Source: Bilabrum cf. latius | Lineage: Eukaryota | Length of the DNA: 64,000 nt | Assembly: GCA_965178125.1 (NCBI GenBank) | Contig: OZ237769.1 | Coordinates: 186,001 to 250,000, forward strand | Reading direction: 5' to 3' | Shown here: piece by piece, positions 3,393 through 42,630 of the stretch | Layout of the letters: every line of letters begins with the position of its first letter | How positions within the stretch are numbered: the stretch's first letter is position 1 | Program-made: the position numbers and the translations under genes | Notes under the pieces: generated by a model | Told to the model about the DNA's origin: nothing | Database searches by the model: none | The model's input: the letters and a program-made list of their open reading frames with translations, nothing else

Positions 3393-5249
3393 TCAGGCCA
3401 TGCACGGACAGCCGTATCCCTCCGCATCGACGCACGTGCAGTTGCTCACATGCAGCCCCGGCGCCAGCATGTCCACCGTCCTCAGCGGGGCCCTGCCACA
3501 GGCCCTCAGCTGGTTGTCCACGAAGCTCATGTTGGGCGCCCGCATGGGTCCCTCCAGCCAGGCGGGGGCAGGTGTCATCAGTAGCGCGTGGATGCAGGTC
3601 CTCTCGAATAGGTTGCCTTTCACCACTCCTCCCGGGCTCTTGATGCGTCCTGCCGTGCAGAAACCGTCGTGGAAGTGCCCGCCTTCGATGATTGCACCTC
3701 CCGCGCCCCATCCGTCCATGTCCACCACAGTGCCGGGACTCAGCACGAGTCCCAGATCGATGCCCTGCCCTGCCTCCTCCTCCCCCTGCTCTCCCTGTCC
3801 TGCATTCTGTACCCCACTCCCCGCTCTGGCCCCGCTGAACGGCGCCTCGATCGTCACGTTCCAGACCACCACTCCGAACTCCCGTGCCACGCTCAGGCCC
3901 CGTGCGCTCAGCACCTTGTACAGCTGCTTGGCCTTCTCTTGCACGGCCGGGTCTGTGACCTTGACCGGGTCCCTTGCAATCGTCACACCTCCAGCGAGCA
4001 AGGTCGAGTCCTCCGGCTTGTAGAAGCTGAGCGAGCTGCCCCGCTTGGCGTGTTCGAATTGCACAGCGGTGCCGTAATACGTGTTGAGCGGGGGATCGAG
4101 CTGCCACATGTGCGCCAGCAGCGGCTCCACCACGACCACGCTGTACGACTGGCTTGCAGACTGGTGTGACGAGTGAGATGCGTCGCCGTTGGTGCTGCCC
4201 ATGCTGGACAGGGGCCCCGCTTCCAGCACGACCTGCAGGGTGTTGTGCACGTTGAAGTAGTCGTCCCCCGAGTAGCTCAGCTCGCAGTCGGTCAGCCTTG
4301 GCCCCGCCCTGCATCCCGAGGAGTGGAAGGCATCCGAGTTGGCGGCCAAGAGCCTGTCGGATCCAGGCTTCCGGATCAAATTGACCCGCTCGTAGACGTG
4401 CCCGCCCTCCCCGTCAAACTCCGTGATGGCCTTGTTGGAGGCAGCGAAGACCGAGAGGTCGTGGGTCGTGACCCGGCTCGAGTTGGCCACGTTGTACGTG
4501 TAGCCCACCAGCGGGGATAGGGTGAGGAAATCCCCCGCATTGGGGACCTGCCAGCTGGGCTCCCAGCCAGAGACCGTGCTGCATCCCCCTGCGGCGGCCC
4601 CAGAGGCCCGGGCCTAGGCGCACCATGGCGTGCTGCTTGCGTTGCTCACCTAGCCGGGCTCAAACTGCCACGAGTGGACCCCTCCCGCGGTCTGGATGGA
4701 CATCTTCCGCGATGGACCGTGCCACATGATTGCGATCACCTCGCTCAGGGTCGTGTTGCTCCTTTTGGGCCACCATTCGTGAAGCGGAGGCATGCCGGCG
4801 GATGCAACCATCCGCAGCTCGTGCTCCTCTCCAGGATTCGTGAGCGCGACCGAATGGATCTGCCCCTGCCACCATGGGAGCGGGTCGTAATCAATCATAA
4901 GCTGCCGGGAATTGCCCTGGCTGCCGCCGAATCGGACGTTGCTGCAGCTTTTCAGCATTACGCCACCGCTATCAAACACTGTATTGCCTGCTTCAAACAG
5001 AAGCGTGGCTCCAGCCCCAGCAATCGTCATGTTAACTGCTCCATTGATAATGAATGGGACTTTTCCAAAGTTCCAAGCGACTGGCTCGATTGTGAACTGG
5101 CTGTCGCCTCGTTGGATGGCGGCGTCGATGGCCATCTGCAACTGAGATCCTGGTTTGGCTGTTGAACCGGGTGATTCCACTGAGAGCTGGGCGTTTGCAT
5201 GCGAATACTATATACAGAATGCCAAGCTAAGTGATAGGCTCAATGCCAT
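3393..5249 (-). CDS. Secreted right-handed beta-helix glycoside hydrolase, GH110 (alpha-1,3-galactosidase)-like
   Basis: One frame runs from ATG 5249 (MALSLSLSLAFCI*YSHA, signal-peptide-like) through TAGs at 5208, 4650 and 4614 to TGA 3393. The motif NSDAFHSSGCRAGPRLTDCELSYSGDDYFNVH resembles the GH110 catalytic region (D..H..GC...GDD..NVH). Family assignment is from motif recall. Confidence 0.7.
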
Positions 5250-5747
5250 GGTTTCACGCTCTCTGAATGAATACAGAGTGATTCTGACGCGCACCGCAAG
5301 TAGATCCTGATTGCTTCTCCTCCTCCGAGATGCAGCAAAGGAAGCAAAACCGAGCAAAAGCTGCCACATATCTTGCATTTGGCGTACTGATCTTCCTCGC
5401 CCTAGCCTGCATACACCGTCATCCATTCGATATTGGTCTGCGAGTCCCAAGCAGGCAGCTGTCAATAGTAGCCGACCTTCCGCTCGCCTCATTGCGCAGG
5501 TGCCCGCCCCAACGCTGTCCATCGGCAAGAGCGCATTCAGCTCTGACGAATCTCCCTGCCTCACTTTGGCAAGCACGTCTCTAACCCCTACATGCGAGCG
5601 TCTGAACCCATGCTTTGCCACAATACCTTGCCCTTTCGTACGGGTGCAGCACTACTACTACTAGTGCCCAGAGCCCAGAGCCCTCCTCCGGGCCATGCTA
5701 TCCTGTCCCACACCGGGCCCCTGCCTCAATGACCACGACCACTTGCC

Positions 5748-6497
5748 TCAATAACCACCCCTGCCTCGGCCCCGACCCCCGCGCCCCCTACCCCCACCTC
5801 CGCCTCTATACCCCCCACCACCGCCCCGGTAACCCCCCCGGAATCCCCCCCCACCGCCCCTGCCCCTCCCCCTCCCACGTGGTGCCCCCCTGCCCCTACC
5901 CCTCCCCCTGCCTCGTCCTCGGGGAACAACATACCCACCCCCCATGGCACCGCCCGGTGGACCTCCTCTCCCTCGACCCCTTGGAGCGCCAAACCCCCCG
6001 CCGCGGCCCCGCCCTCTTCCGCCTCGAAAGGAGCCGACGTCGGTACCGCCAGCCGCTCCGCCGCCCGCTGCAACACGCTTGCGGGCCACCTGAATGGCTC
6101 GCGATTTCAAGAAGGTCTCGTTGAGTACGGTAGCATTCTAGGCACTATCTTCGTCCGCAAATTCAACGTATGCCTAGCCTCTGGGTTTTCGTGTAAACCT
6201 ATCATAGAGAATCGTGATTCGGGTAATTGTACCAGCGGAAGCAAAGTGGCTTCGGATATCCTCTTCCGAGGCGTTAAAGTCAACATTATTTACATATACC
6301 GATCTAGCATCAGCAGCGGCTTGCTCCTTCCTGGCAGCCTCTACTGCATCCGAATAATCCTTTGCGAGCCGGATGCCATCCTGAGCGGCCGTCCTGGCGT
6401 CGTCAAACTATTTTGATATATCACTATCAAGCGCTTCAAGCGCAGAAATATCAACATCCAAACTGACTAGCGCATCTGCCAAGCTCGACGAAGCCAT
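5748..6497 (-). CDS. PABPN1: Nuclear poly(A)-binding protein (PABPN1/PABP2): RRM plus RGG tail
   Basis: ADARSVYVNNVDFNASEEDIRSHFASAGTITRITILYDRFTRKPRG*AYVEFADEDSA*NATVLNETFLKSRAIQVARKR matches the PABPN1 RRM. In-frame TAGs at 6408, 6174 and 6138, an RG-rich C-terminus, and TGA at 5748. Confidence 0.9.
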
Positions 6498-6672
6498 TAT
6501 GATGAGGTGTATGTAAATCTAGATCAATCGAACGAAATTCTGCCGTCTAATGCATGTGACGAGTGCAAGTCCTTACTGTAGCGTTCGAAGTGTGGTATAA
6601 TTAGTACTCGGCGAACCATGGCAACTGCCATCACAATTGCGCTTGTATCAAGGCGTGTTTTAGGTCTAAAAC

Positions 6673-10050: not shown

Positions 10051-13048
10051 ATGTCGGTCAACTACAGTGATCTCAGTCGTGCCGTCACCGACGATGACAA
10101 GGTGCCCCCTGGCTACATATACAATGATATTGCAAGTGAGGCTGAGACGCGGCCTGCCTTTTGCGTTTGCTCGTCCTGCGCTTAGCTGCGCGAGGGCATC
10201 TGCGTGCTAATTATTTAATACAATGAACGCCGGGAATCAAGCTAGGGGCAAGTGCGATCCAGTGTTGAGTTTTATCCAGCCGCACCGTCATCGCAGAAGC
10301 GACGCACGCGAGCATCACAAACTGCAAGCCTCTTGCGGATTGGCTTGGGCGAAACCTTGGTAACTCTAGCCCGAACGTTAAGCGAAAGACGCTGATCGTG
10401 ATTCGATAGGTATCTCGAGGTGGCTCGCAGGAGTTCAGGCGGTGCATGCAGAAATGGCGTGACACCATCAAGAAGGAAACCGGTAAGTCCCTGAGCTGCA
10501 TACCTCTAGAAAAATACCATACTACTACTAATTAAACTTATGAGACGGCCCAACACCAGCTGTGCGCACAGCCCTCCTCGTGTGCGGCCGTTCCTGACTT
10601 GCAGCCCGTGCTTTGCTGGTCGCCCACACACCCTTCCATGAATGTATCCCCCTTCGCATCCTCTTGAATTGCGCAGAATTCCGCGGCAAGATGCATCCTC
10701 TGAAAGGCGACGCCCCCAACCGAGCCGTGCGGGATGCGGCCACTGGCGCCCTGCAGGCCATCTTCAGCGCGGGGCAGACAGCTTCCTCGGGGATGGCGGG
10801 GCGGATCGGGGGCCACGGGGGGTCGGGGGGGGCGGGGTCTAGTTCCGGGATGGGGGGGCGGTCCGGAGGGGGCGCGGCAGCGGGAGCCAGGGGCGGCGCG
10901 GGGCCGTATGCGGGCGGCTCCTCGGTGCCTCCTTCCATGCTTCACGAGGCGCCCATCAGCACAGGGACCATGGGCGGGGTGGGTTCGGGCCCTGCCAGGA
11001 AGGGCGGGGCCGGTGGGGGCATCTTTGGGGCGATCGCGGGGGCGTTTGCGACCAAGCCGGGGGCCCCGCAGCCCAACGGTGGGGGCGGAATCCGGAGGCA
11101 GCCCCCCAGGAGGGGGGGTGGCGGTGTCCCCGTAGCGGGGGGTGGCGGGGTCAGGGTACCCACGTACGGTGCGGGGAGCCCCCGACAGACGGGACCCCGC
11201 CTCGACGCCTTTGGGAGGCCCATCGGCGGGGGAACAACGGGCGGCGGATCGTCGGCCTTCGGGGGGTAGAGCCGCGGGGGAACAACGGGGGGTGGGGCCT
11301 TCGGGGGGGCGGTGGCGGCGCCCGGCCGCGGGCCCGCCTCCTCCCCGGTGCGCTCGTCACACACAGGCACCGGCCGGGCGGGGTCAGCCGTCTCGGGGGG
11401 CACGTACGAGAGGGGTCTGATTGCCGACCTGACGGCTGCCGGGGGCGTCCGGGGGCGGCTGGACCCATCCAAGCTGCAGAGCTTCCTGTCGGCTGCCAAG
11501 GGACTCTCCGCCGAAGTGGTTGCAACCGCGATCGACGATCGGCTGCAAGAGGAGAACCTGCAGGTGGTGGGCAAAGCGCTCGCCCTCCTTGAGCAGGTGG
11601 GCAAAGCCGGCAGCTCGGACCCCGCCCTCGCTCCTCTGAGGCAGCACCTCGCCGATCACTGCGATGAGGTGCTGGAGCTCCTAGAAAACCCGCCGAAGCC
11701 CGCCATCAAGCGGGCGGCCACAAAGGCGCTGGTGGCACTAGGCGTGGAGGAGGCGCTGCAGCACGCTGCACCCGCGCCCGCACCGGTTCCTGCGCCCGCA
11801 CCGTCTCAAGCACCTGCACCAGCGCCGGCCACAACGCCGGCCCCGGCCCCCGCTCCAGCCCCAGTGGAGGAGGAGGAGGATGAGGTGGATCTGTTCGGCG
11901 AGCCGACCCCGGCGCCGGCCCAGGTGGCTGGGGCAGCGACCGCCAACCCCGCCGCTGGCGACGATGATGGCGACGATATGTTCGGCGGGATGGAGCCGGT
12001 GTCTGCCGCTCCTGCTGCTGTGTCCGCCCCGGCGCCCGCCCCCAGTGGGTTCGCGTTCGGTGGGGGTGCACCGGCACCCGCCCCTGCACCTGCGCCATCG
12101 ACAGGCGGATTTTCGTTCATGGGGGGAGGTGGTGGTGCCCCCGCAGCCCCGGTGGCTGCACCTGCACCTGCACCCGCGCCGGTGACGTCGCACGCGCGGA
12201 GCGGTTCCGGTATCTCCTCGGGGATCGGATCAGGGATCGGATCAGGGGTGTCCAGCGGAAGCGGAGTGGCACCGTCCGCTGGAGGTGCATCCAACGGTTT
12301 CGGTTTCGCCGAAGCACCTGCGCCGTCCCAGGCCCCGGCTCCGGGTCCTTCTGCCGAAGAAGAGGACTTCTTCGGCTCGCTTTCCGCGCCTGCTCCTGCC
12401 CCTGCCCCTGCCCCGGTACCCGCCCCCGCCCCTGCCCCATCAAAGGCCCTCGATCTCAACGCCCTCTACAAGCAGAGCGCGCAGGGGCCCGGGCTGGGCG
12501 GGGTGGGTGGCGCGCCCGTGGCACCGGGGGCGGGGGGCGGCATGGGGTTCGGAATCGCTCCTGGGGCGCCGCAGGGGATGCAGCAGCAGCAGCCTGCTGG
12601 CCAAACTGGGCCTGGCATGGGTGGCATGGGAGGCGGGTTCGGTGGTGGGATGGGCATGGGAGGGGGCATGGGGGGGGGCATGCAGTCCACTGCGCCTGCA
12701 CCTGCTCCCACCGCCCCTAGCATGCCTTGGATGCAGTAGGGGCAGGCATAGGCACAGCCCCAGCCACAGGCCCAGTCCGGTGGGTTTGGGTTCATGGGCG
12801 CGCCTGCCCCCGCGCCTGCCCCCGCTCCGGCTGCGCCAGCGATGCCCTGGATGCAGCAGCAGCAGCAGCAGCCGCAGAGCGGCATGCCGAGCGCGATTTT
12901 GGGGAACTCTGGGCCCATGGCGGGCGGTGGGTCCGGGGGATTGACGAGTGCAGTTGGCATGCCGGGGATGGGACAGGGGCAGTCGGCTGGGCAGCAGCCG
13001 GCCTCGCCCAAGCCAGATCCCATGGACTTGCTGGACGCGGGCTTCTGA
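10051..13048 (+). CDS. TEPSIN: Tepsin (AP-4 accessory protein; ENTH plus VHS-like domain, Pro/Ala/Gly-rich tail)
   Basis: Exons are 10051-10135, 10297-10482 and 10677-13048, joined by GT-AG introns. Motifs: AVTDDDKVPPGYIYNDIA, VKRKTLIVIR*V, EFRGKMHPLKGDAPNRAVRDAA and YERGLIADLTAAGGVR. In-frame TAGs at 10407, 11267, 12737 and 12749. Ends in TGA. Confidence 0.85.
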
Positions 13049-13237: not shown

Positions 13238-15368
13238 ATGAACGGCTATGAGGTCGAGAAGGTGATAGGTGATGGGGCCTTTGGTACTGTTTATAGATGC
13301 ATCGACAAGAAGTCGGGCGAGCGAGTTGCTGTGAAGAAAATTAAGCAAAAATACAGCAGCTGGCATGAGGCCCTTGCACTCAAGGAAGTAGCAGCTCTGC
13401 GGTCCCTCCCAAAATTTAGGTACTTAGTTAGGCTTAAGAAATTAATCATGGAGAATAATATCCTGTATTTCGTCTTTGAATACGCGGAATCGAACTTGAT
13501 AGCGGTGAGATATGTCTGGGGATGCGAAGGACTGCTTCCCATCGAGACAAGTAACGGATGCGCTCGAATACGCCCTGCACTAGCCGAAGCTTTGATTGGA
13601 TGAGAGTCGGTGTAGCAAGAGCTCGGGCCGAGGGTCCTTGGAAAGTTGCACCACCCGTTGGCTGTCTGCAGTGCCACATCGGTGGACCTCTTCCGATGCC
13701 CGCTTTCCACTCCCGCAGTTATTAGAATCGGTCGCATCGTCAGCACCGGCAACTCTCGCTTCCCCGGGTGCGGGTGGAAGCAGCATGGCTGGCTCCCGTC
13801 GGATGCACTCCTCGCTCGCTCCCAGCGGCCTCCCCCACGCCGTGGTGCGCAGGATAGGGTACCAGGTCATCGCTGCGCTTGCCCACATGCATCTGAATGG
13901 ATACTTTCATAGGGACGTTAAGCCCGATAACGTGCTCATCCGCAGGCGAGCAACTGCTCGGGCGAGCAGAGCAGCCGAAGCCATGGCCTCCGTGGGTGGC
14001 TCCAGCGGAACCGGGACCGCCAGCAGCGCCGCGCAGTAGGATGTTCCGCTAGAGCAGGTGCACTGCCTGCTGGCGGACCTGGGCCAGGCACGGGAGACCC
14101 GCTCAAGGCCCCCCTACACGCACTACGTCGCGACCAGGTGGTACCGGGCCCCTGAGATCATCCTGCGAGCGACCATCTACAACAGCCCCTGCGACATGTT
14201 TGCCGCCGGCTGCCTCATCGCCGAGCTGCACAACGGAAGGCCCTTGTTCTCTGGCAAGAGCGAGACGGACCAGATGCACCTCTACGTCAACGCGCTGGGC
14301 TCCATCACGCCGGCCTCGTGGCCAGAGGGGGCCCGCCGGGTCAAGGAACTCGGAGCCAGATTGCCGCAGGGCATAGCCGGAAGTGGGATCGGATCGTTGT
14401 GCCCTGGCATGCCGGAGGAGGGGCAGGCCCTCGTCGGCGCCCTGCTGGCTCTGAACCCGCAGAAGCGGATGAGCGCTGCGCAGGCACTGGACCACGGCTA
14501 CTTTGCGACCAACAGGGCCGAGGAACAAGAGTTGAGGGCCAGGGAACAACGGGAGGGGGGAAGCGGGTCACCATCGAGCATGGACGGGCGCTCGCCGACC
14601 GCCATCACCGGCCTTGACGCTGGTGGGGGAACAGCCGCGGCGGGCGGAGCCAGGGCGGGGACATCCGCGGCGACAGGGACAGGGGCAGGGACAGGGACAG
14701 CGAGGGCAGGGGCAGGGGCTTAGTATCAGCACCATGCCAGGGCAGGCAGCGAGGTACCGGGGGGGTCAGGGGGGGCGGGCGGGGGTAGTCGGGGCTTCGC
14801 GGCGTTCGCAGCTCAATCGTCACACGCCCGCAGCAGCAGCACCCCAGTGGGCGGTGGCAGCAGGCCGGGTGCATCGCACGGTGGTGCCAAGGACCACGAG
14901 ATGGACGCGCTGAACGACCTGCTAGCCGAGGCCCAGGCCATGGTGACCGAGTCAGAGTCGAGGCCGGCAGGGGCAGGGGCCGGCGCTGGACACGGATCGG
15001 GGTCCGGGGTGGGGAGCGGTGTGACGAGTGCGATGGGGGACCCGATTCTGACACCGGCGGCAGACTCGCCCCGGGGTGCGAGCCGGGCTGTTGGTGCTGT
15101 AGGTGTGACGAGTGGTGGGGCCTCGCGGGCAGCGGCGGCTGCGGCGGGACAGGGAACCCCCAGCGGTGTGACGAGTGCAAATCGAGGCGCGGAGTCCCCC
15201 GGAGACACCCCACTGTCTCCTCTGGGTGGTTCTGGCTCCGGGTCCTTCCGGCTGGGGGACTCGCTGGGCGATTTGGACGCGTTGCTTGCTCAGGTGAAGG
15301 GCAAAGGCAGCGGGGTGGCGGGGCCGGGCGCAGGCAGCAGCGGTCAGGGCCAGGCAGGCGTGTCCTGA
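13238..15368 (+). CDS. MAK/ICK (RCK family) Ser/Thr kinase with low-complexity insertions and tail
   Basis: Exon 1 is 13238-13504 (IGDGAFGTVY, VAVKK), with a probable intron at 13505-13718. Then come HRDVKPDN, LADLGQARETRSRPPYTHYVATRWYRAPE (TxY loop) and DMFAAGC. In-frame TAGs at 14037 and 14721, TGA at 15366-15368. Confidence 0.88.
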
Positions 15369-15541: not shown

Positions 15542-17725
15542 TCATTTAGTCACCTGCAGAGCCACAAACTCGGGGGTATACCCGTCACTCGTCACAATGC
15601 AGCTGCGAGTGCACGTGAACACGGCGAGGCAGTCGAAATCGATCGTGTCCCGCAACCGGCGCGACTTCACTGCTGCCTCCAGGATCTGCATCCTTCCTCT
15701 GGATCCAACCGCCTTCCCCTTCTCCTTCCTGCCGCCTGTCGCATCCCTCTGGCTCCCAGCCGGCCCCAGGCCACCATCCCCGGGTGCTTCTTCCCCACCA
15801 GACCCGGTTGCAACCGCGCTCCCACTACTCCCCCCAGTTGCAACCACCAGTGAGCTCTCCTCCGGCAGCAGGTGTGCGAGCATCTGGGGCATGACCTGAA
15901 ACTCGAACCGGCGGGGGGCGCCGCACCTCGGGCATGGGGGTGCGTACGATCGCGAGGATGAAGATGAAGATGAAGATGAAGATGAAGATGAAGATGAAGA
16001 TGAAGATGAAGATGGGGCTGACGTCGATGATCCAGCAGCACCTGCGCCATCGTGCGATGCACCCGACGAGGCTCCGGTGCTAGCGAGAGGAAGCAGCGCG
16101 CTGCTGGCATGGAAAGAGCCACCGGGGGCGGGGTCGCCCTCCAGCGCGACTGCTTCAAACGGGGGGGCTCCCGGGTTCGATCCCCATAGCACGTCCTCAT
16201 CGTTCCACCTCGAGTATCTGAGCACCTGCTCGGGGGCAGCTGCCGCCCTCATGCTCATCTTGCGGCTGTGGGCATCACCCGCAAGTGACCCGCCCGTGGC
16301 TGCCGAGAGTTCCGCCTGAGTCAGGCGTGCTACCCCTGACTCATCCTTGATGTCCACGGCCACCTCACCTGACCCACTGGCTGCTACCGATCCGCCGGTT
16401 TGACCACCCCCTCCCCTCTGTCTCCATGCCTCCAGCCGCTCTTGTTCCCCGGGCTCCTCCTCCACCACCAGGTCCATAGGGAGGAAGCACGCGCCCGCGG
16501 TTGCAACCACCGAGGGATCCACCGCAGGGAGTCGGAAAGCCGTCAGGGCACCGCTCTGTTCCTCAGGACCACTCGTCACACCATCGGATGGGATCAGGCT
16601 CCGGATGGATCCGCCGGCGCACAGTGCCGCAGCCTGCCGCATCAGCGCCAGACCACTCCCAGCATGGCTTGTCCCTTCCCCTGATGCCGCCGAGCGTTCC
16701 CCTCCTGGACTCGGAGTCAATAATGAGGCGCCCTGCTTGCCCCTTGCGACCAACAGGCGCACGACGTCCTGCAGTAGCGTGTCTCCAAGCGCGGCGCCGG
16801 CTAGCGGAACCGATTCCGAGACCATTGCCTCCTCACCTTCGCCCGTGCCACCGTGCGATGCACCCAGCACCCGCCTCAGCTCTCCAGAGGCCTCCTTTCC
16901 CAGAGAGGCCTCCAGTGCCTCGATGGACACCGGGGAGGACTTGCAGCCTGTCGGCAGCCCCGTGAGGCAGCAGAGCCGATCGGAGTTGCAGCTCTTGCGC
17001 GCATCGGGGGACTCAGAGGCCGCTGCCGATTCTGGGCTGGGTTCCGGTGACTATGTGCTTGAAGTCCCGAGCAAGTGGATCGGATGGGAGGATGGGTCCA
17101 TGGCCTGGAGTGCGGCCTCTTCCTCCTGCTCGCTCATGGGCCGCGCCACTGCTGCTGCTGCTGCTGCTGCTGGTGATTGCGATGGGGGAACTGGCGACGC
17201 AGGGTCGGATAGTGCTGCACCTGATGATGTTATTGCTAGTTTGCAGTCGCCTCTCTGCGGCAAGTACTTGTTCTGCTTCGGAAGCTAGCACCGTAGGGCG
17301 AGCACACCGGCTCCGCTGCGAAGGCACCTGCCCTGCGTGCAGCAAAACACGTACAGCATCCGGTGAAACGCTTCACTATGGCCAGCCTCTCGTGATGTGA
17401 GGGGTGCATACAGCTAACACATCATGGGCATGGGCCGATTGCACCCGGGACATTCCATCTGCTTCGAAGACGGCAGCATTTCAGGGTTGAGCCAGAACGG
17501 CCTGCCGCCAATCTGCCCGCCATCCCAATCGCTCCAGCCGATGCCGGCAGACTCGAACATCGGCAGCTGTGAATAGCTCTCGCTGGAAACGCTTGCGTCC
17601 TCTGCATCACTCTCTGCCGCTGCACCGCCTAAGGGTTCGGCAAAGCCAAGCTAGACGCTTCGACCTCTCCAAAACGTGTCAAGGACGTCATCGTCGCCTT
17701 CATCGGCACAAAAAGCCTTTGACAT
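15542..17725 (-). CDS. PDCD2: PDCD2/TSR4-like protein (uS5 chaperone family)
   Basis: One frame from ATG 17725 reads V*LGFAEP, GQIGGRPFWL, CPGCNRPMPMMC*LYAPL, AFHRMLYVFCC, LRC*LPKQNKY, PEQVLRYSRW, PPCPRCGAPRRFEFQVMPQML and IDFDCLAVFTCTRSC. TAGs at 17651, 17414, 17285 and 17051, TGA at 15542. Confidence 0.92.
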
Positions 17726-18043: not shown

Positions 18044-19138
18044 TCACCCGACCACTCCATCGGTGGTTCCCTCGCTCCCCGCCAGTGCCACCGAGTTGTA
18101 GTGCTCCCCAAGAGCGTAGTACTCGCGGTGGAATGCAAGAAGCAGAGGCCGGGCCCCGGCCCCAGCACTGCAACCGGCCGTATCCACCCCATGGTCGCCA
18201 CCCCCTTCCCCACTCGTAACACCCGTGGCAGCAGCACCTCCAGAAGCAGCCGCGTCCCGCTTCGCATTGAAAGCAGATGCCGCCTTCTCTGCCCCAGGAC
18301 CCACCCCGTACGCATTCCCTTCCGCCTGCACCACCACGATCGGTTTCCCCAGAGCATCTGCTGCCGCCCTCACCTCCGGCTCGCCGCCCCACACAGCGGT
18401 GCTCGCCAAACGGTCGCAGTATCGAGCAAGTGCTCCGGCGGGGTCGGACTCAAACCGGTCTTCGTCTTCGTATGGCAAAAATGGCCCGAATTCGGCCCCG
18501 CGCGCCCTGATGTGTTCCGCAACCATCGTTCGGATGTCCTTGTGGCCGGGGACGGCTTCGCTGGCCGATGCTCGGCTTCGCTTCAGCTGGTGCTCGATGG
18601 AGCGAAACAAGCAATTCCCGTCAGCCGGCACGTCAAATACTGCGAGTCCAAGAGGCTCGAGTTTCTTGTTGATGGCCGCGATCTCTGTCACGCGAGGATC
18701 CACGGTGTTCGCCTTCTCCTCGGCGATCGCAGCTCGTATCGCCTCTTCCTTTGCCTTCTTTCTGTCTCGTCTTGCCTTTGCTCTCGACTTCTTAGATGCT
18801 CCTCCATCATCATCGGGAGTTGCAGCGGCTTCGGCACCGGGGTCAGCTCTACTAGCGGGACCAGTGGGTACATCTGCGGCCGGCGAACTGGTCCCAGCTC
18901 CAGGTTCATCGCCCCCCGCGAGCTAGGATTCCAAGTAAGCAATTTCAGCAGCGTGGCGTTCCTTCATGTCAGATTCTAGCTTAGCAGCTTGCGCTTTAGC
19001 TTCTTTCTTTGGTATCTTCTTGTTCTTGAGCAAAGCCTTCCCTTCCTGCTAGCATTTCTTCAGCTCCATTTTGTGCCTGTGCTTCATCTTTCCCAGCGTT
19101 TCTCCATCGGGAATAGAAAGATCTCCAACTGATGCCAT
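18044..19138 (-). CDS. OTU deubiquitinase, OTUD6B/OTU2-like
   Basis: N-terminal MKHRHKMELKKC*QEG...ERHAAE coiled region. OTU motifs DVPADGNCLFRSI, WGGEPEVRAAA and YHxxY-like FHREYYALGEHYNSV. TAGs at 19049 and 18923, TGA at 18044. Confidence 0.9.
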
Positions 19139-21016: not shown

Positions 21017-24013
21017 ATGAACTCCACGGCGTCGTCGGGGACGTACGGCGCAGATGAGTTCCTGAAGCAGCCACGATTCGGCCAGACATTGACTCATGGG
21101 GCCCCAACAGCAACTGCCGAGCGCAAGGAAGGATGGCTGCGCAAAAAGGCTCTTTCTTCCAGAGAGAAAATGCGATGGGCCACTCGATGGATGGTCCTTC
21201 ATGGAAAGTTCCTGTCGTATTCCAAGCGAAAGGAAGAAGCGGGCAGTCCTATATCCACGCTCGTCCTGGACACCACATCCACGGTGCAACCCACAGAAGA
21301 GCACGCCTCCAGCGGCTACCGACATGAGTTCGTCATCGAATCTTCTGAGTTTGTATTGTATGCGTGCGCGGAAAGCACGGCTGAGCGAGACGACTGGGTG
21401 CGATCCGTGCAGCAGGTGCTCGACCGCCTCACGCGCCACATCCGCCTGGAGCAGCAGGACCGAACGAGGCGATTCGAGAAACAGAAGATGGAAGACGAAA
21501 TTCGATTTAAACAGGAGCAGGAAAAGCTAGAGGAGGACCTTAAGGCGTCCCAGAAAGCCAGGCTTGACATATCGAGCCGGATGGAGCAGCGCAAGAGCGT
21601 CATTCTCAAACGGGAGCAGCTGGCAGCAAAAAGCAAGGCATTGCTGCAGCAACAGAATCCCCAGGCTGGCCCACCACCTGCTTCCGGCCCTGAATCGGCC
21701 GATAGACCCGGCAAGAGCACTGCGGGAGCATCCGAACAACCCGCGGATGCGAGCGAGCAAGCAAGTGCGCCGCAAGGACCGCTCAGCACGTTCGTCTGGG
21801 GCACAGACGATGAGGGACAGGCCGCCAACGGCACCGATTTCCGGGGAACCATCAAATCGCCGCAGCAGGTCCGGATGCTTAGGGGCGCCCGTGCCGCCGC
21901 GCAAATCTGCGCCGGTTCCACACACGTGGCTGCGGTGTGTCCGGGGGGCGAAGTCCTTACCTGGGGCACGGGTTAGGAGGGTCAGCTGGGCGGGGGGCGG
22001 GCCCTTCTTCAGGCAAGCAGGCCGTTCATTGTTCCCTGGTTCAGAGATGTGCCCGCCAGCCAGGTGGCGTGCGGCGGCTCGCACACTCTTGTGCTAGCCA
22101 GAGACGGCAGGGTCTTTGCGTTCGGCTGCAACGAGTAGGGTCAGCTGGGGCTAGGGCACGGGTCAGGCGCCGCGCACTGGGCCCCTGCGGAGGTGAAGGC
22201 GTTGCGACCAGCAGATAGCGACGATGCATGTGACGAGGGATCCAAGGAACAAGAGGACAGCGTTGAGGGCCAGGCAGGAGGCAGCAGCAGCAGCAGCAGC
22301 AGTAGCAGTAGCAGCAGCAGCAGCAGGGGATAGGGTACGAGCAATGCTAGCAGTGCTAGCAGTGGCAGTGGCGCAGGTGAGGGTGCAGGTGAGGGCCGTG
22401 CTGGGCCCACCGTCCCGAGAGGTCGCATCACCTGCGTGCGAGCGGGACACGAGACCTCTGCCTGTGTGACGAGTGAGGGGGAGCTCTGGCTCTGGGGCGC
22501 CACGGGGAGGGGGCGGCTGGGCACCGGGCCCGCCTCGGCAGCGGTGGACTCGGAGCCGATTTGGGAGCCCACGCGTGCCGAAGATGTCTGCCAGGGCGCG
22601 GCAGGCGAGATGAAGACCTAGTCTGCCTCTCAGTGTGACGAGTGCGGTTTGTTCGGCCGCGGCAGCGGGCGCGTGCTGGACGTGTCGCTGGGGGCGTGCT
22701 ACACGCTGGTGCTGCAGCAGCTCGATCGAGAAGATAACGAGAAGGAGGCTACGGATCCAGCGGGGACTGACGAACCTTCGGCTAGGTTCGCTCGAGTGCT
22801 GGTGGCTGGTGCCCTTGGAGCCAGCTCTTCTTCGTTTCACCCTTCGAGCCACTGCCTTTGGAGGGAACTGCCGCTGCCAAGGGAAGGAGCCGAGGCCCAA
22901 AGGGGGACTCAACCGGGGGCAGCACAGGAAGGGGAATCACAGGAAGGGGCAAGCCAAGGTGCCGGCGACAGCTCAACACGCTCTGGGCCATCGGCGCGCT
23001 GCATCGCCGCTGGGCCCGACATGGCCGTGGTGGTAGCAACGGATGGGCGGTGCTTTGTGGCGGGGAGGGGGGTTCTCCCGGTGGCTGCAGCGAGTGAGCT
23101 CCTGGGTTCGAGTCCGAGCACTACCAGCGAAAGTATGAAAAGGGCTTCCAGGGTCACCGGCTTCGAATCGCTGGTGGAAATCCCCGACGCAGTCGGCCAC
23201 GGCGTGACGAGTGCATCGGTTGGCACGGATCACGGCATGCTGCTTTGCGGAGGGAACGCTGGGCAACTGCTGGCTTTCGGTCGCAACAGCTCGGGGTAGC
23301 TTGGTGCGAGCCAGTGGGGCAGGCGGGCGGAGGGTCTGCTGGTGGAGGTGGATGGGCCACGGGAGCAAAAGGGCGCGGGCTTCGTGGAAGTAGCGTGTGG
23401 TTCTGGTTTTACTGTGGGTCTCTGTGCCGCCGGTTTGACCAGGGGATCGGGCGCGGGTGGTATTTCCGGAGAGGCTGGGGAGGGGCCGATCGTCGATGCG
23501 GGGGTCATCGGTGGTGTGACGAGTGCTCGGGGAGCCACGCTGGAGGCTCTGCGCCAGCACGAGCAAGAGACGTTGGTGGGGATATCGCGGGGAACAGCTC
23601 AGGGACAACAAGCCTCCACGGGAGAGTCCGCTGGGCCACCGCACGACGAGCCCACCATTGGCATGGTGGGGTCAGCCCCCCCGCCGCCACCTCAGCTTGA
23701 TATCAAAGCGGCAGCTCCAGCGGTGCATGCATCGGCCTCTCCATCGGAAGCCACCGGTGCCGGTGCTGGGCAGATGGAGCAATCTGGGTCAGGCCCCGGG
23801 GACCCTCTCGCACCGGTCGGCTCGGGGGAAGTGGCAACGGCAGCGGCAGTTGGAGGAAGGGATCATGTGGATGCGGATTCCGGAGCGAACGGCGTGGATG
23901 ATGACGAGTATGATGACGAAGACTCAGACTCTCTCCCGTCCGACGATGAGCTGCCGTCTGATGCCATCAGTGATGACGAGGAAGAGGAGGAATAGGAGGA
24001 CGATGACCGATGA
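21017..24013 (+). CDS. PH-domain plus RCC1-repeat protein with an acidic tail
   Basis: PH domain (KEGWLRKK...WATRWMVL...ERDDWVRSV), a coiled coil, then RCC1 repeats (VACGGSHTL, FGCNE*GQLG, FGRNSSG*LG, VACGSGFTV). A single frame passes TAGs at 21974, 22136, 22331, 22619, 23297 and 23993 to TGA at 24011-24013. Confidence 0.88.
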
Positions 24014-24276: not shown

Positions 24277-26152
24277 TCAGATCAAGTGGCCCAAAGCAAG
24301 CGCAACCGCAACCGCAGACAGCAGACCCGCACCCGCCGCCCGCACCCCTGCCCCATCGGTCTTGGTTCCAGGGGGCGGGGGGAAGTAGTTCCCCGCCGTG
24401 GCCAGCTGCACCTGCAGGTACAGCGGCTCCTGGGGTAGAATGAAGGCATCCGCCTTGCTGGGCTCGAGCAGCCTCCGCGTGTCGTGCGGCATGATGGTCC
24501 CGTCGATCGACTGCTGCACCAGCGCCTGGGCCGCCCCGGTCGTGGCATCGTCCGACTCGAGTCTCAGCCTGAAATCGAAGAGGACGCCGTCCTGCATCTG
24601 CTGCCACTGCCACACGCTCGCACTGTCCGAGGGCCCGCCCACCTGCCGCGACAGGTCGTACTGCACCGCACTCGTCACACGGGCCAGCACCGCCACGTCG
24701 GACCGCAGGTAGTCCGCCTTCATGTTGGTCACTTTTGCCTTCATGGACACCGTCTGCGGGCCCTTGCACCTGCTGGGAATGTCGCCCAAAGCCAGGCCCG
24801 GGCAGGTGGCGGTGAGCCCATCGATGAACTGGTCCAGGTTTGGGACCGGGGGCTGGAAGCTGGTGGCTCTGTTCCTCAATGCAGTGGCGAGGAGAGAGCC
24901 CCTCGCGCAGCATCCGTCGTTGGCGGCGGCTGCCCTTATCGCCTCCCCGCATGCGCTGGAGCAGTTGAGCCCGCCGTGCCTGTCGCTGTCGAGGATGTTG
25001 CTGCCGGCGCACCCCGCCTCGATCGCTTGCGCGCTGTCGACAAAGTCGTTCACGCAGTAGTACGTCCCGTTGAAGGCCCGCCCGCGGTCTGCGCACCCGT
25101 ACGCAACGGTGGCGAAAGTGGCGGTTGAGCCGCCCACGGATCGGATCGCGACTGACGTCACTGCCCTTCCGCAAGGGGAGCACCGGAGCCCCATCTGACG
25201 GTCGCTGAACACGTCATCGTCGATCTGCGTGTCGTAGAAACCTCCCGCTGCGAGAGCCCTCACGCAGTAGTCGTCGGGCGTGGCCCGAATGCAGTAAAGC
25301 TCGTCCTGCATCTGGAAGAAATCCGCAAAGTCCACCGTCACAGAGGCGCCCGTGTCGTCGTTCGTCTCCCCGATGAACACCAGGTTGTCCTCGAAGAGCT
25401 CCCTGTACAGTGACTCGAGCTTCAGCGTGCACGAGTCCCGCGCCCCCTCCCCGCTTGCCTTGCACAGCACATCGAGTTTCTGGCCCACGGCGGCAGAGTC
25501 AACCCTGGCTGCATTCAGGTCGTTCTGGACGTCGAAAAGCGTGTCCACGCAGTACTTGGTCGAGTCCTGGGGGGACTTGAGGCAGGACGTGGCTGTGTAC
25601 TCGATGTCCAGGCGCACTGCATTGCAGGCGAGGCTGGAGGTGTTGCGGTTGGTGCCAGCGGGGAGACTCGTCCGGTAGCTCTGGATGGTCGAGAAGCAGG
25701 AGGAGGGGCATAGGCGGTCCAGCCGGCCGTCGTTGTTGTCGTCGTTGTCAATGAAGTCAGTGCACTTGGCAGAGATGTCGTTTACCATGTCGCAGCACGG
25801 GGCGTCCGGCTGGGCCTTGCAGAACTCTGCCGGATCGTCGTCCTGGTCTTGCTGCAAGCTGCCGCTGCTGCTCAAGCTCGATTCAAAGCTCCAGCGAGAT
25901 CGCTCAGCGAATTTCTCGGCTTTAAATAGCAGCTATGAGGTTCGATCGTCGCCGAGCTGGAAGTAGGAGCCCTCGTGCGCCTGCAGTGATGCGATCGGAC
26001 GAAAAGGCAACCGTGGAGTTTCGGTCGAAGCTATGCGACTTTTGTGGCGGCCACAGGTGCAACACATTGCATACGATTTGAAAACATATATTGAGCAACC
26101 ACGCAGTATCGTTTCTCACCTAGACCAGTCTACTTGCAACGAACGCTGCCAT
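24277..26152 (-). CDS. Cys-rich surface protein with a C-terminal hydrophobic (GPI-anchor-like) signal
   Basis: The 532-aa ORF has many Cys and ends in DGAGVRAAGAGLLSAVAVALALGHLI-TGA. It extends upstream through a TAG to an acceptor at 25981. A putative exon 1 at 26152-26120 ends TAG|GTGAG. The 5' model is uncertain. Confidence 0.65.
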
Positions 26153-27209: not shown

Positions 27210-27428
27210 TGTGCGGGCACGGGGTCTGTTCTCCAGTCGGAGGGTCCAGCGGTCGTATGGAATAAATCCACCAAAGGGCTTGTGCTCATCGTAAAGGGCC
27301 CGGCTTGTCAGCTTGCAGCTTGCTCAGCTGCGCGAGTTGCTGTTAGCACTCGTCACATCAAGTCGCGTCTCTTCCCTGGCCGTCGAATACCTCAGTGCCG
27401 TCACCTTTGAGAACTCGAACGGAAAGCC

Positions 27429-29440: not shown

Positions 29441-31351
29441 TTAAGACCCCTTGAATCCCTTGCCAGGCACAAACGCGGGCGCATCCACGGAAAGCTTGAA
29501 ACCGCTGCTCGCGCCTTTCGCCCGCGCAGCCGCTCCCCCCGTGTGCGCCTGCGACGCGCCCCCGCCTGCCAGTGCTCCCGCGCGCGCAGCCGCACCCCCG
29601 GTTGTGCCCTAGGCCCGGGCTGCAGCGCCACCAGTGTGGGCCGCAGCCACAGGGGCAGGGGCATCAGAAGCAGAGGCAGAGGCATACGAAGCAGAGGCCG
29701 CGGGACCTGCACCTGCACCGGCAGCAGGCGCAGGAGCCGGGGCAGAGGCCCCCGCCGCTGCCCTCCCACTCCCGCTCGTCACACCCTTGATCCCCCGACC
29801 CCGATCGGCTCCGAGTCCGAGTCCAGGCAGGCCCAGTGCCGCAGCAGGGAGGGAGGCGTGCCTGCCCAGTGCGAAGGAGGAGGCCCCCTCCAGCCCTGGG
29901 CCAGACCCAGCCACCGCCTCGGTCCGGTAGAATCCATCCGGGGCGAAGGGACCCCGTCTGCAGAGGCACACCTGTTCCAGGGAACAAGTACCACCCCCAA
30001 GTGGCGCTGCCCCGCCGCCACCCTCGGCGTTGTAGTGGGCAAGCAGCGGACGAGCGTCTACTGGCAGCCGCGCCGCCATGGACCCGAAGTCGCCGCCACT
30101 TTGACCACCCCCCGAGCCCTTCCCCATGCCCCGGCCCCGCCCCGACCGCCGCAGCCGCGTGTTGATCACGGTGGCGTGCAGCTTGGGGCTGAGGCGCCCG
30201 TCGGACCCCCGCAGCCGCTGCCTCTCTGCCTCGTCCTCCTCCACCACACCGGCCTCGTGCAGAGCCTCGTACAGCACAGAAAATGCCTCGCGCACCGCCC
30301 CCGTGCCGCCGCCCACGGAGCTCGAGCTGGTACTGGCCCCACCTCGAGCCTGCTGGCCACCCGACTGCCCGGTGCGACTTTGACCGCCCCCCGAAGTGGG
30401 GGGCAGCTGGTCGCTCGCCTTGAGGTACAGCACGTGCGTCTCGGACGGGTCGTCGTTCATGTGTTCGAGCCCCTGCAGCCTGACCCTATGCGATCGGAGC
30501 AGATGCCTCACTCGTTCTGCGACCGATCGGATTGCTCCGATCGCGGCTCTCAGTGCCTCAGGAGTGTAGATCCTCAGCATGAGCAGCGTCATGTGCAGCT
30601 GCCGAGGCGACACGAGCACGCTCTCCTCCAGCCCCTTTGCCGGCGCCCCAGATCCGGGGCCGAAGCGGGACAGCACGTCTGCTTGGAATTTCGCCACGCT
30701 CGGCGCTGCGGCACGCAGCGGGATGCACAGAAAGTGCGTGTAGTCGAGCCGGCTCGCCGTGTCGGCGGCGATGACCTCCAGCATCGTCTTGGCGCGCCGC
30801 ACTGCGGAACCGGTAGAGCCGCGCACAACCACTGAGAGGTCTCCCACGGCACCGCCGGAGCCCCCGTGCCCCCCATGGCGCCGTTTGGAGGCAACGTCCA
30901 GCAGGACAGCCGAGCCGAGCGATGGCTGGTGCCGCCGTCCGGCCCCTTTGCCGAGCCGAATCCCGATGGCTGCATCGATGACGCGATTGCTTGGAATCTT
31001 GATTTGTGTACGCGTATCCCGTTCGATTTCTTGCTTGCTTGCACCGCGCTTGCCCACGAGAAACTTGAACTGCTCCGGGGGAATGTGCACGCGAGAAATC
31101 CACTTGTCAGACCGGGAGCCTGCTCTCCCTTCCGGGACGATACCTTCAGCCTCCAAGTCTTCGATATCATCTTCCACGTCGCCGGACCCGACAGCTTCCC
31201 TATCGCTGCGCGATGCCCCCCACATTCCCGCCTCGTGAGAGTGCTCGGCACGGTCGGCCGACCTCGCAGCTGCAGCCAGCGGCAATTCGCCCTCCGCAAG
31301 GTGAGCCCTGCGCTTCCTGTATCGAATTCCCCCAACGTCAATCACGAGCAT
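29441..31351 (-). CDS. ASCC1: ASCC1-like protein (KH domain plus 2H-phosphoesterase/AKAP7-like domain) with a C-terminal PAM2-like motif
   Basis: KH domain: FKFLVGKRGASKQEIERDTRTQIKIP. Also YTHFLCIPL and the HxT motifs LHMTLLML and KLHATVINT. The frame reads through TAG 29609 to KLSVDAPAFVPG and ends at TAA 29441. Confidence 0.88.
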
Positions 31352-31557: not shown

Positions 31558-32281
31558 ATGAAAGGGATTCAATCGGCCATTGCTACTTTGATCCCATTCG
31601 TACTAGCCTATGCTGCCTCAGACGACGTAGGCATGAAGCTTGCTAGCGACAGCTTGATGGAGCCGACCATCGATGAGCCATTTACTGGGGATGATGACGG
31701 CGCTGGCGTTGATTGCCCCCCGCAGTCTTTGCTAGATATAATTGTATAGAATGGAAGGGTGGATTGTGGGCCCAAGTGCGTGTACAAGCACTACGACGCA
31801 GAGGTGAAGGTGCAGCCGCTCCCGGCCGGCATCAGCTGGCAAGCGCTGTGGAAAGGGGCCGGCTTCACCCCGGCACTGTCGTTCGCATTGATCAACCATG
31901 GGACCTGCAGCGGCGTGTACAAGACCCCGCAAGGCCAGTGGAACCTGAAGCTCGACAAGCGGAGGACCGTTCGAACCGGGCCAATCGACAAGAGCCACAA
32001 CGGGACCGGGGGCATGCTCGTCACACAGTGCCCGTGGTGTGACCCCACGGGACCGACCGACTGCAGCCAGTGCGGGAACGTTCCCACCGCCAGCTTCGGG
32101 GAGGCCCACGTGTGGCAGATCAACGCCGAGAACACCGCGTACCTCGCCGAGCTGGAGCCGTCCTCCAGCAGGGGGGTGCTCTGCGTGGACCTTGGGGCGA
32201 TCGAGGACCACGGGCGAGAGATGGAGAGGGTGCGAGAGCTGGCGAGGGAGCGGGGCCTGGTGCTGGGCAGGGATGGCCGTG

Positions 32282-40696: not shown

Positions 40697-40750
<54 letters not shown>

Positions 40751-42630
40751 GGCTGCTGCTGCTGTGGCTGCTGCTGCTGTGGCTGCTGCTGCTGTGGCTG
40801 CTGCTGCTGCGGCTGCTGCTGCTGCTGTGGCTTTGGCTGCTGCTGTGGCTGTGGCTGTGGCTGCTGCTGCTCCTGCTCCTGTGGCATCGGGGCACTTTCA
40901 GGCCCAAACTGATTCTCCTACGCTTGACCTGCCACAAGCGCGCCATAAGAGTCAGCAGATCCGACCGAACCAGACTCCCAACAACGCCCCCTCAGCGAGC
41001 CAGGCAGCGACACACCATCTACATCCGTGCCAGACAAAGACCCGAGCTGGCTGCCGGCATCCTCACTCGTCACACTCCTACCACTTTTCATCCTGTAGTC
41101 ATGCATCCGGAGCCATTGCCCAGTCAGCTCCGAGTCCATGCTCCCCGCCACTGACCCGCCATCACGCGCCTCCCCTTCCCGTCCACCGCTTGCCATGGCC
41201 TCCAGCTGTCTGCGCACGACAGTGGTATCGGAGACGCGCAAATGGGCTATGCCGTTGCCAGCCAGGTGGTTCGTCAGGGGTGCAAGGCGTGCTGCTGGCT
41301 GTCGCCTCGATCTGCTCCTGCCCTGCTCCAGCAACTGCTGCTGTGGCTGTGATGCTTGGGGCTAATCGACCCCACCATTGAGCCTTCCGGTCATCGTGCT
41401 CACTGGATCGTGCGACGACTGAAGGCCTCCCGGACCGCCCAGACCCCCTATGCCTAGAGCACTCTCTCCATTTCTTAGGATTCGCCGTGCCATCTGCCCT
41501 ACGCTGTTATCTGAGCCACCACTGCCAACGCTATTTGGAGTGTCTTTACCGCCACCGCCATCCCCACCGTGTACATTTTGGCCGCTCATCTGAAGTGGGT
41601 CTGTGCGGATGCTTGCAGAGGCCAAGGAGGAGGAGACCTAAGGGTTGCGGATGGACGGAGGTAGTACTGCCACACCCGTCCCGAGGGTTGTTCCCTGGCT
41701 TGTTCCCTGGACAGGAAGCTGGATACCACCTTTAGGCTATTGCGCAGCTGCCCTCTGTCGTCCCCTCCTGACCCTGCTGACCCTGCTGAACCGTCCTCCC
41801 TTGCTGGACCCTCCTGACCCTCCTGAATCTCCCTGCTGCCTCATGAGCCTCTGCTCCATCGGAAGCTCCTCCTCCTCCTCGTCCTCGTCCTCCTCATCCT
41901 AGTGCGTATGTCCGTGCGCATCCCCGCCCATGGGAGTCCCTTGGGTGCCCATGGAGCTCCCTCCCACGCTGATCTCACCCTGAGGCTGGCCCGGCTCTTC
42001 GCTCCGCCCCTCCGGCTGCCCCTGTCCCTGCTGCTGCCTCCTCCTTGGGCTCCCCGCGATTAGCACCGTCGCAGCGCCAGCGGCATGGGCAGCAGCCGAG
42101 GGTGCTGTCGCTGCTGCTGCCTGCCCACCCGGCTGAAGACCTGTCTGGATTTCTGCAACAGCTGCCTGCACTTCTCCTGGCGTCGGTCTCAAGATCTCGG
42201 GCATCTGGGATGGATCCCCGGTGAGGATGGCCTAACCCAACCATTTGGTAAATTGGCTCTTGGTTGATTTGATCCTCGCCGTGATCTAAGCAGCTAGTGG
42301 TTCAAACCACGGCTGCTTGTTGATACTGCTCCTGTGTAGAGCCTTCTGCCTGGATGCCAGGTCCCTCTTGGCCGTCTATTGAGCCTCAATTAACTCGGTC
42401 GATCCAGACTAGAATCGTCGAGCCGCTGCGATCATCCTGAGGGAAATCGATTTCAGACTTGTGATGTAGTCTTGTCCTGTACGATTTGCCTCTTCAATGG
42501 TCGAAAGCCACGTTTGCAGGTGACCTGGCCGCACTGGTACAGGAACCCTTGGTCCTATCATGCTGCCGCTGGAACGACCAGAAGCAGGAGCGCCATGATC
42601 GGACGAATCGCCGGGACGTCGGGGATTCAT
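39901..42630 (-). CDS. Unknown tandem-family protein, paralog C (polyQ plus 29-aa repeats)
   Basis: A 910-codon frame from MNPRRPG. HLQTWLSTIEE...LASRQKALHRSSINKQPWFEP...SQFTKWLG*AILTGDPSQMPEIL is homologous to A and B. It ends in TAA at 39901, where copies D-F have TGA. Confidence 0.72.
40124..40616. repeat. 87-bp tandem repeat (~6 units; GQSAGAASSDAIMHDAAGVGHGDDADRGW), adjacent to a CAG/CCA-rich polyQ tract (40616-40880)
   Basis: Unit starts are at 40124, 40211, 40298, 40385, 40472 and 40559. Copy D has 1 unit; copies E and F have 3. Confidence 0.93.

Follow-up and report, generated by a model that had tools for sequence, protein, structure and literature searches.

A 64,000-nucleotide stretch of the nuclear genome of Bilabrum cf. 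latius (assembly GCA_965178125.1, contig OZ237769.1, positions 186,001 to 250,000; the whole stretch is referred to as the window) was analyzed for the dispersed DNA word TGTGACGAG, which an original prediction made from the letters alone had described as strongly over-represented. The window has a G+C content of about 60% and carries eukaryotic housekeeping genes, among them those for ABCE1, eEF1B-gamma, a PABPN1-type RRM protein, a protein kinase, a PDCD2-like protein, an OTU protease, a PH/RCC1-repeat protein, a KH/AKAP7-type protein and a reverse transcriptase. Introns are few, and the four that were read begin with GTAAGT, GTAAGA or GTGAGA. Contigs from presumed RNA runs show GT..AG joints and a poly(A) tail. 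Of the runs from which these transcript-like contigs originate, three are presumably RNA and one is DNA-like; only the coverage and joins of the contigs were used, not depth, and starts, strands and levels are not readable from them.

Over-representation of the word

The word occurs 20 times in the window (9 copies on the + strand, 11 on the − strand), compared to 0.51 copies expected from 100 dinucleotide-preserving shuffles, in which the maximum was 3. The strong over-representation that had been predicted is thereby confirmed. All 17 coordinates given in the prediction (9 on the + strand, 8 as reverse complement) are exact, and the further copies it had placed in tandem units are three on the − strand, at 52839, 56741 and 60622, which bring the total to 20. 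Because four of the 20 copies (41066, 52839, 56741 and 60622) belong to paralogous units whose flanks resemble each other, 17 sites are considered independent. The near-matches announced at 3980, 14816 and 23203 are likewise present (3977–3988, 14814–14825 and 23202–23213).

The full word can be written as G-TGTGACGAG-TG-(C/A). It is preceded by G in 15 of 19 window copies and followed by T (15/19), G (18/19) and then C or A, while conserved flanks were not found. Base counts over 19 window and 21 related instances are flat beyond positions −1 to +11, and the information is limited to the 12–13 positions of the word. For the 12-mer GTGTGACGAGTG, 13 exact, 9 one-mismatch and 14 two-mismatch matches were detected in the window, together 36 compared to 5.36 expected. 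In an unbiased k-mer count of the region from 1.1 to 40 kb, the word and its sub-words rank top at k = 8, 9, 10 and 12; the 9-mer was observed 16 times there versus 0.25 under a third-order Markov model, and the remaining high-ranking k-mers all derive from a 30-bp tandem repeat. The density of the word is about one per 2–3 kb in the gene-dense first 33 kb. No copy lies between 41074 and 52839, a span including the reverse-transcriptase region, so that the remark that the word was not noticed in the retrotransposon holds.

A second word, CTCTCAGTG, with 6 exact copies (2730, 5178, 19959, 22627, 30547 and 30830) versus 0.2 under the Markov model, of which the copy at 22627 abuts the main word, was dropped as a second signal word, since its one-mismatch matches (12 versus 21 expected) are not enriched.

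Positions and contexts in the window

The contexts of the copies were assigned from reading frames and from coding potential trained on the recognized genes. The exact copies are:

4164..4175, + strand, exact 12-mer: antisense in the − strand gene 3393–5747, His-Ser-Ser-His; coding potential of the − frame 17–20 on both sides
6554..6565, + strand, ATGTGACGAGTG: 176-bp gap between the divergent genes for the RRM protein (PABPN1-like, ATG 6497, −) and ABCE1 (ATG 6674, +), about 110 nt upstream of the ABCE1 ATG
11351..11362, − strand, GTGTGACGAGCG: antisense in the + strand Gly/Ala/Pro-rich gene 10598–13048, Ser-Ser-His; within transcript-like contig 11311–12628
15019..15030, + strand, exact 12-mer: sense, Gly-Val-Thr-Ser-Ala, in the C-terminal tail of the protein kinase gene 13596–15368
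15103..15114, + strand, exact 12-mer: sense, Gly-Val-Thr-Ser-Gly, kinase tail, 84 nt past the copy at 15019
15166..15177, + strand, exact 12-mer: sense, Gly-Val-Thr-Ser-Ala, kinase tail, 63 nt past the copy at 15103
15586..15597, − strand, TTGTGACGAGTG: sense, Ile-Val-Thr-Ser-Asp, PDCD2-like gene (−), 15 codons ahead of the stop
16570..16581, − strand, exact 12-mer: sense, Gly-Val-Thr-Ser-Gly, linker of the PDCD2-like gene
22228..22239, + strand, ATGTGACGAGGG: sense, second frame (Cys-Asp-Glu), PH/RCC1-repeat gene 20927–24013
22464..22475, + strand, exact 12-mer: sense, Cys-Val-Thr-Ser-Glu, on an RCC1 repeat strand
22633..22644, + strand, exact 12-mer: sense, second frame (Cys-Asp-Glu-Cys), RCC1-repeat gene
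23514..23525, + strand, exact 12-mer: sense, Gly-Val-Thr-Ser-Ala, RCC1-repeat gene
24669..24680, − strand, exact 12-mer: sense, Arg-Val-Thr-Ser-Ala, gene for a Cys-rich protein 24277–26115 (−); in a spliced transcript-like contig
27347..27358, − strand, ATGTGACGAGTG: non-coding, 62–73 nt upstream of the eEF1B-gamma transcript start (27420), antisense to the gene
29773..29784, − strand, GTGTGACGAGCG: sense, Gly-Val-Thr-Ser-Gly, tail of the KH / AKAP7-type 2′,5′ RNA ligase-like gene; in a transcript-like contig
32015..32026, − strand, GTGTGACGAGCA: antisense (Leu-Val-Thr) in the + strand gene 31510–32640; + frame 15.7/16.6 versus − frame 8.0/−7.1
41064..41075, − strand, exact 12-mer: sense, Ser-Val-Thr-Ser-Glu, tandem-family paralogue 39901–42666
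52837..52848, − strand: paralogous copy of the 41064 site, tandem unit 1, not independent
56739..56750, − strand: paralogous copy of the 41064 site, tandem unit 2, not independent
60620..60631, − strand: paralogous copy of the 41064 site, tandem unit 3, not independent

One-mismatch copies are:

3977..3988, − strand, GTGTGACGATTG: sense, gene 3393–5747
14814..14825, − strand, GTGTGACGATTG: antisense, kinase gene
18211..18222, − strand, GTGTTACGAGTG: sense, Gly-Val-Thr-Ser-Gly, OTU protease gene
23202..23213, + strand, GCGTGACGAGTG: sense, Gly-Val-Thr-Ser-Ala, RCC1-repeat gene

Thirteen of the 20 copies share one sense frame, GGT GTG ACG AGT GCN, which reads (Gly)-Val-Thr-Ser-(Ala/Gly/Asp/Glu). 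Two copies use a second sense frame (Cys-Asp-Glu), three are antisense in coding sequence (4165, 11353 and 32017), and two are non-coding, both in promoter regions (6554–6565 and 27347–27358). The coding frames GVTS, CDE, SSH and LVT were thus correctly read before, whereas the description of the word as independent of strand and frame was overstated: antisense, second-frame and promoter copies do occur, but one sense frame holds 13 of 20. The word uses four of its five stop-free frames; the third sense frame, which holds a TGA, is unused.

Inside coding sequence, where 15 of the 17 independent copies are found, the word mostly occupies Gly/Ser/Ala-rich tails and linkers, and 7 of 12 sense copies are located within the last 170 codons. 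Same-strand clusters are formed by three copies in the kinase tail and four in the RCC1-repeat gene. The coding sequences of ABCE1 and eEF1B-gamma, the two most conserved, are free of the word. The start of eEF1B-gamma at 27420 is the beginning of a contig behind adapter letters. A small neighboring − strand gene that would make the copy at 27349 a sense copy was considered and rejected, as no convincing open reading frame was detected.

In three − strand genes the word lies 427–465 nt upstream of the end of a transcript-like contig (24669/24207, 29773/29346 and the near-match 18211/17746). This distance is probably a coincidence, as the RCC1-repeat gene departs from it and the end of a contig does not mark the true end of an RNA.

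Enrichment at the nucleotide level

For codon-aware tests, 15 coding regions with 10,368 codons, holding 12 sense and 3 antisense copies, were shuffled in 1000 trials per shuffle. When codons were shuffled synonymously within genes and proteins were kept, 0.50 sense and 0.07 antisense copies were obtained on average (largest total 4); whole-codon permutation gave 0.09 sense and 0.07 antisense copies (largest total 3). Under the codon-preserving shuffle that had been proposed as a check, the enrichment therefore stays, with 15 copies versus 0.57. The antisense copies on their own (3 versus 0.07) are enriched about 40-fold. The predicted DNA-level signal overlaid on coding sequence thus survives both codon-aware shuffles, and it is also seen antisense, in promoters and in related contigs (see below).

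The tripeptide Val-Thr-Ser was observed 15 times versus 2.7 expected from amino-acid frequencies, so that it is raised about five-fold in the window proteins. GTG ACG AGT encodes 10 of these 15 tripeptides, while codon usage (0.56 × 0.32 × 0.11) predicts about 2%, and ACG AGT is used for Thr-Ser in 11 of 15 cases within Val-Thr-Ser versus 2 of 41 elsewhere. At the Gly-Val-Thr-Ser sites with the exact 9-mer, the preceding Gly has the minor codon GGT in 6 of 7 cases; AGT is likewise a minor codon within the fixed codon set of the word. Based on the shuffles and on codon usage, the enrichment acts at the nucleotide level, with protein sequences pulled along. The word shapes codon choice and even protein sequence.

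A tolerance model based on amino-acid frequencies places 59% of all embeddable sites in sense orientation and 57% in the main frame that was observed. The sense bias is therefore largely expected, and its share should rise further in Gly/Ser/Ala-rich segments.

At the 24671 site, the residues LARVTSAVQ stand where an orthologue with 63% identity has LGIANTVQ, without a change in length. The site is kept in a protein with 94% identity and absent at the protein level from the 63% orthologue. Since the orthologue has other residues at the same length, this copy arose by substitution and not by insertion. The copy at 22464, which sits on an ordinary repeat strand and was also counted for an origin by substitution, is written onto residues that the RCC1 fold already uses.

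No local folding preference was observed, as the mean unpaired probability was 0.41 in the word and 0.40 in the flanks (43 instances). In the window, neither an Rfam match nor a tRNA nor a complementary RNA gene was found. A frameshift, bypass or stop device was rejected, because coding continues in an unchanged frame across the word and the TGA frame is used by none of the 18 coding copies.

The word in related metagenome contigs

Metagenome contigs were scanned for two word copies 45–75 nt apart, which yielded at least 121 loci. Among those listed, 89 are tandem arrays of various organisms whose flanks resemble one another; these were set aside. The other 32 have unrelated flanks, with "dispersed" defined by a 50% cut in flank identity; roughly estimated, about 7 dispersed hits are expected by chance in such a collection. 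Only 10 of the 32 dispersed loci, those sharing one metagenome name prefix, were used (L007, L020, L050, L060, L062, L077, L079, L080, L092 and L098). These contigs have a G+C content of 52–61% and carry "gg-word-tgc" in unrelated surroundings. Outside the discovery pairs they contain 5 extra copies in 23.3 kb versus 0.17 simulated. Confinement to the window, which the original prediction had named as a result that would speak against it, is therefore not what was found. These contigs carry eukaryotic genes, which encode an endonuclease III homologue, a Rad51 paralogue, a GH32 enzyme and a CEP19-like protein, and Gly-Val-Thr-Ser-Ala is encoded again in protein tails.

Same-strand pairs are spaced 75–82 nt apart in 8 of 10 related pairs (allowed range 57–87), compared to 84 and 63 nt in the window. 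Such distances come close to the length of DNA in a single superhelical turn around the nucleosome.

Three loci of a second metagenome (L028, L078 and L107) have a similar look at a glance, and a viral scan gave 2 loci. Dense tandem arrays built on the same 9-mer were seen in L009, L037, L046, L064, L073, L088, L100, L114 and others. They have periods of 7 to about 90 bp in unrelated contigs and are a different phenomenon from the dispersed word.

Genetic code and further features of the window

The best named relatives of the ABCE1 protein belong to stramenopiles (about 60% identity), and another sequence reaches 88%. TAG occurs as an in-frame sense codon, e.g. at 21974–21976, 23297–23299, 11267–11269 and 14721–14723 and at many more positions, and reading it as sense fuses fragmentary frames, such as into the 1028-codon PH/RCC1-repeat frame 20927–24013 with 7 TAGs. 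One TAG lies in "NSSG-TAG-LG", where RCC1 repeats carry Gln (GQLG). In the endonuclease III domain of one related contig (L062), both TAGs stand opposite Gln residues of the human enzyme, one of them the Gln of "LSSQTKD"; because of this alignment, the source of the contigs is taken as a relative sharing the unusual code. Judged from these alignments, TAG is a glutamine codon in this lineage. Long frames end in TGA (17/19) or TAA (2/19), and TAA may therefore still be a stop codon. Genetic codes that split UAG from UAA have reportedly been the subject of a published paper (PMC5304391). For annotation the reassignment matters, as standard gene callers would cut genes at every TAG.

At least six paralogous − strand genes are located at 33430–42666 and 52280–62213, three of them in near-identical 3.9-kb tandem units. 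An N-terminal region without Pfam match is common to their products, and behind it lie long tails of low complexity (poly-Gln, Gly-Ser, 87-bp repeat), and the word is present only in four members (39901–42666 and the tandem units). A retroelement extends over about 43100–51800, with a reverse-transcriptase match at 48631–49527, and its long frames also need TAG read-through. It is free of the word; a stretch of this length would hold about 3 copies if the density in the first 33 kb applied, and it is too short for a depletion call. At the start of the window (1–1043), an 84-bp tandem repeat (336-bp super-unit, 12.4 copies) encodes leucine-rich repeats of a − strand gene. Perfect hexanucleotide microsatellites lie in coding frames, namely GACCCA ×16 (34424–34520; − strand Gly-Ser) and GATGAA ×9.7 (15957–16014).

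Discussion

The word is a nucleotide-level word of a nuclear genome and of a related organism, and it lies in genes and two promoter regions. It overrides codon preference and alters proteins; therefore, something must read or generate it.

Several ordinary explanations fit parts of the data. A piece broken from a mobile element or from a tandem repeat might be suspected, or else a splice signal, because metagenome tandem arrays of other organisms contain the same 9-mer and because the word begins with GT after G. This is the least probable of all explanations. Flanks are unrelated past 12–13 nt and the length does not change relative to the orthologue, which rejects a dispersed repeat, a miniature inverted-repeat transposable element, a mobile-element end and a tandem-repeat family alike; the transcript-like contigs 24207–25979, 29346–30999 and 11311–12628 retain the word with the frame unchanged across it, and the real introns start with the GTAAGT, GTAAGA or GTGAGA mentioned above. 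Hardly more probable is a protein short linear motif, Gly-Val-Thr-Ser-(Ala/Gly/Asp), acting in disordered regions with DNA identity being secondary. Such a peptide does recur in tails and linkers of unrelated proteins, both in the window and in the related contigs, but its codons are fixed, including the minor GGT and AGT, and the word is also found in non-coding DNA, in antisense orientation and in the frame that reads Cys-Asp-Glu. That both non-coding copies lie in short promoter regions of translation-related genes (ABCE1, RRM protein and eEF1B-gamma) would suit an ordinary promoter element, i.e. a transcription-factor site of these genes with incidental coding copies. With 15 of 17 independent copies in coding sequence, several of them at convergent gene ends without a nearby promoter, with most promoters of the window lacking the word, and with codon tests that rule out incidental coding copies, this is quite improbable, too.

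Two other explanations are still unlikely, yet they deserve more weight, each to a similar degree. The word could act at the RNA level, with the transcript word GGUGUGACGAGUGC bound by an RNA-binding protein or a complementary small RNA, which would affect stability, localization or translation of mRNAs with one to four copies; Pumilio-family sites begin with UGU, as does the RNA form of the word. Sense orientation of 12 of 15 coding copies in the window and of 9 or 10 of the 10 related pairs, the 75–82-nt spacing in 8 of these pairs, the same-strand clusters in the kinase tail and the RCC1-repeat gene, the presence of copies in mature transcript-like contigs and the position of 7 of 12 sense copies near gene ends speak in favor of it. 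The enrichment nevertheless appears not to be restricted to the transcribed strand, given the roughly 40-fold enriched antisense copies and the copy at 27347, which precedes the mapped start of eEF1B-gamma in antisense orientation; furthermore, amino-acid tolerance predicts most of the sense bias, and neither a folding preference nor a complementary RNA gene in the window was detected. Alternatively, a neutral drive could generate the word, i.e. a sequence-specific bias of repair or gene conversion making it by substitution, and purifying selection removing it where the protein does not tolerate it, without benefit for the cell. A repair bias specific for 12 bp is not known to us from eukaryotes. 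The accumulation of copies in unconstrained Gly/Ser/Ala-rich tails, their absence from the ABCE1 and eEF1B-gamma coding sequences, the 24671 site not being common to the 63% orthologue, and the occurrence on both strands and in non-coding DNA agree with such a drive. However, non-coding DNA is not richer in the word (2 copies in about 8 kb versus 14 coding copies in about 25 kb, estimated for the first 33 kb from the gene map), the identical word is retained in a second organism, and for HIP1 the same question was settled for selection, according to the available text of PMC5861425.

The explanation that we favor, with a likelihood somewhat short of an even chance, is a strand-symmetric DNA word that selection maintains and a sequence-specific protein reads. 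A dedicated protein would recognize the word on double-stranded DNA in either orientation, and the asymmetric site of 12–13 bp suggests a monomeric reader with several modules, such as a zinc-finger array or tandem Myb repeats; as a methyltransferase target, an asymmetric site of this length would be unusual. New copies would be created by base substitution wherever the protein tolerates them, and the dominance of the main frame would reflect the cheapest place to embed the word and not a protein or mRNA function. Selection would hold the word at a set density, with the density mattering and not each single site, as proposed for HIP1 (PMC5861425). Its role would be that of a genome-wide marking or architectural signal; chromosome architecture, choice of partners in repair and recombination, and self-marking against invading elements may be considered. 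A more specific version, a eukaryotic nuclear signature word comparable in function with bacterial uptake, Chi or HIP1 signals, by which the genome marks its own chromosomes for architecture, repair partner choice or the distinction of host and invader, appears conceivable but doubtful.

Several observations weigh against this DNA-level explanation. The density of the word drops after 33 kb, and in the second half of the window it is found only in one paralogous gene family; the sample comprises one 64-kb window and about 24 kb of related contigs. The loss of the 24671 site in the 63% relative fits turnover or neutral drive as well as selection on density. Sense versus antisense copies are still 12 to 3 in the window, above the 59% predicted, and the sense share of the related pairs is somewhat above it as well; since sense copies outnumber antisense copies, room is left for a role at the transcript level. 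Tight protein binding within coding regions is expected to hinder transcription, as with the roadblock factors of yeast, and the window holds no candidate for a reader, as which an uptake receptor or RecBCD serve in bacteria.

Hyper-abundant genomic words have so far been a bacterial theme (uptake sequences, Chi, HIP1). A topical search gave only bacterial cases and no description of such a word in a eukaryotic nuclear genome, and in the full-text literature the 9-, 11- and 12-mers gave 930 and 34 papers, of which all that were listed resemble primer lists by title. The word is thus of interest as a route to a sequence-specific reader that would be new, in a protist lineage about which little is known, and it allows testing whether eukaryotes use genome-wide self-marking.

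Comparison with known systems

Among DNA words read by eukaryotic proteins, the sites of yeast Reb1, Abf1 and Rap1 and of CTCF are asymmetric, about 10–13 bp long, used in either orientation and bound by one protein each. The word resembles them in size, and its two promoter copies sit where such factors bind; however, such sites concentrate in promoters or boundaries devoid of nucleosomes and show no enrichment in coding sequence, whereas 15 of 17 independent copies are coding here. With the ATF/CREB site, including the M26 recombination hotspot of fission yeast, the word has the TGACG core in common. The consensus of the cAMP response element (CRE) has a TGACGT core and is usually palindromic. 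In contrast, the next base is A and not T in the present word, the conserved positions extend asymmetrically and no palindromic half-site is present; as all 20 copies read TGACGA without a second half-site, a CRE site was rejected.

Chi is a short, asymmetric and over-represented word with an orientation bias, which a protein machine, RecBCD, reads on DNA. The traits of the sequence itself are found here as well, but the orientation of Chi tracks the direction of replication, while here it depends on which strand of a gene is coding and changes from one gene to its neighbor.

HIP1 (GCGATCGC) of cyanobacteria, long a puzzle as to its function, is hyper-abundant with about one copy per gene and is written through open reading frames, like the present word. 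It is an 8-bp bacterial palindrome, in contrast to an asymmetric eukaryotic word of 12–13 bp. The available text of PMC5861425 argues that HIP1 is selected and structural, over an origin by biased repair. The key argument for HIP1 is site conservation between genomes; here, only one site (24671) was compared, which is not conserved and is too little to generalize.

The uptake signal sequences (USS) of Pasteurellaceae and the DNA uptake sequences (DUS) of Neisseriaceae are read by the uptake machinery during natural transformation; uptake is not implied for the word described here. In their form they are close to it, being asymmetric words of 9–12 bp that occur once per kb to few kb, in coding and non-coding DNA, on both strands and in tolerated frames, and that are common to related genomes. 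They differ in belonging to bacterial genomes, whereas the present word occurs, at lower density, in a nuclear genome whose genes have spliceosomal introns and whose transcripts are polyadenylated. For bacterial uptake sequences, the available text of PMC2346458 describes that one orientation is favored in the reading frame and that there is a bias to gene ends. As in the class of iterated words represented by USS/DUS, Chi and HIP1, over-representation here stands against a codon-aware null model, and copies are distributed over coding and non-coding DNA, both strands and several frames. By analogy, the word behaves as a putative eukaryotic counterpart of the genome-wide words of bacteria.

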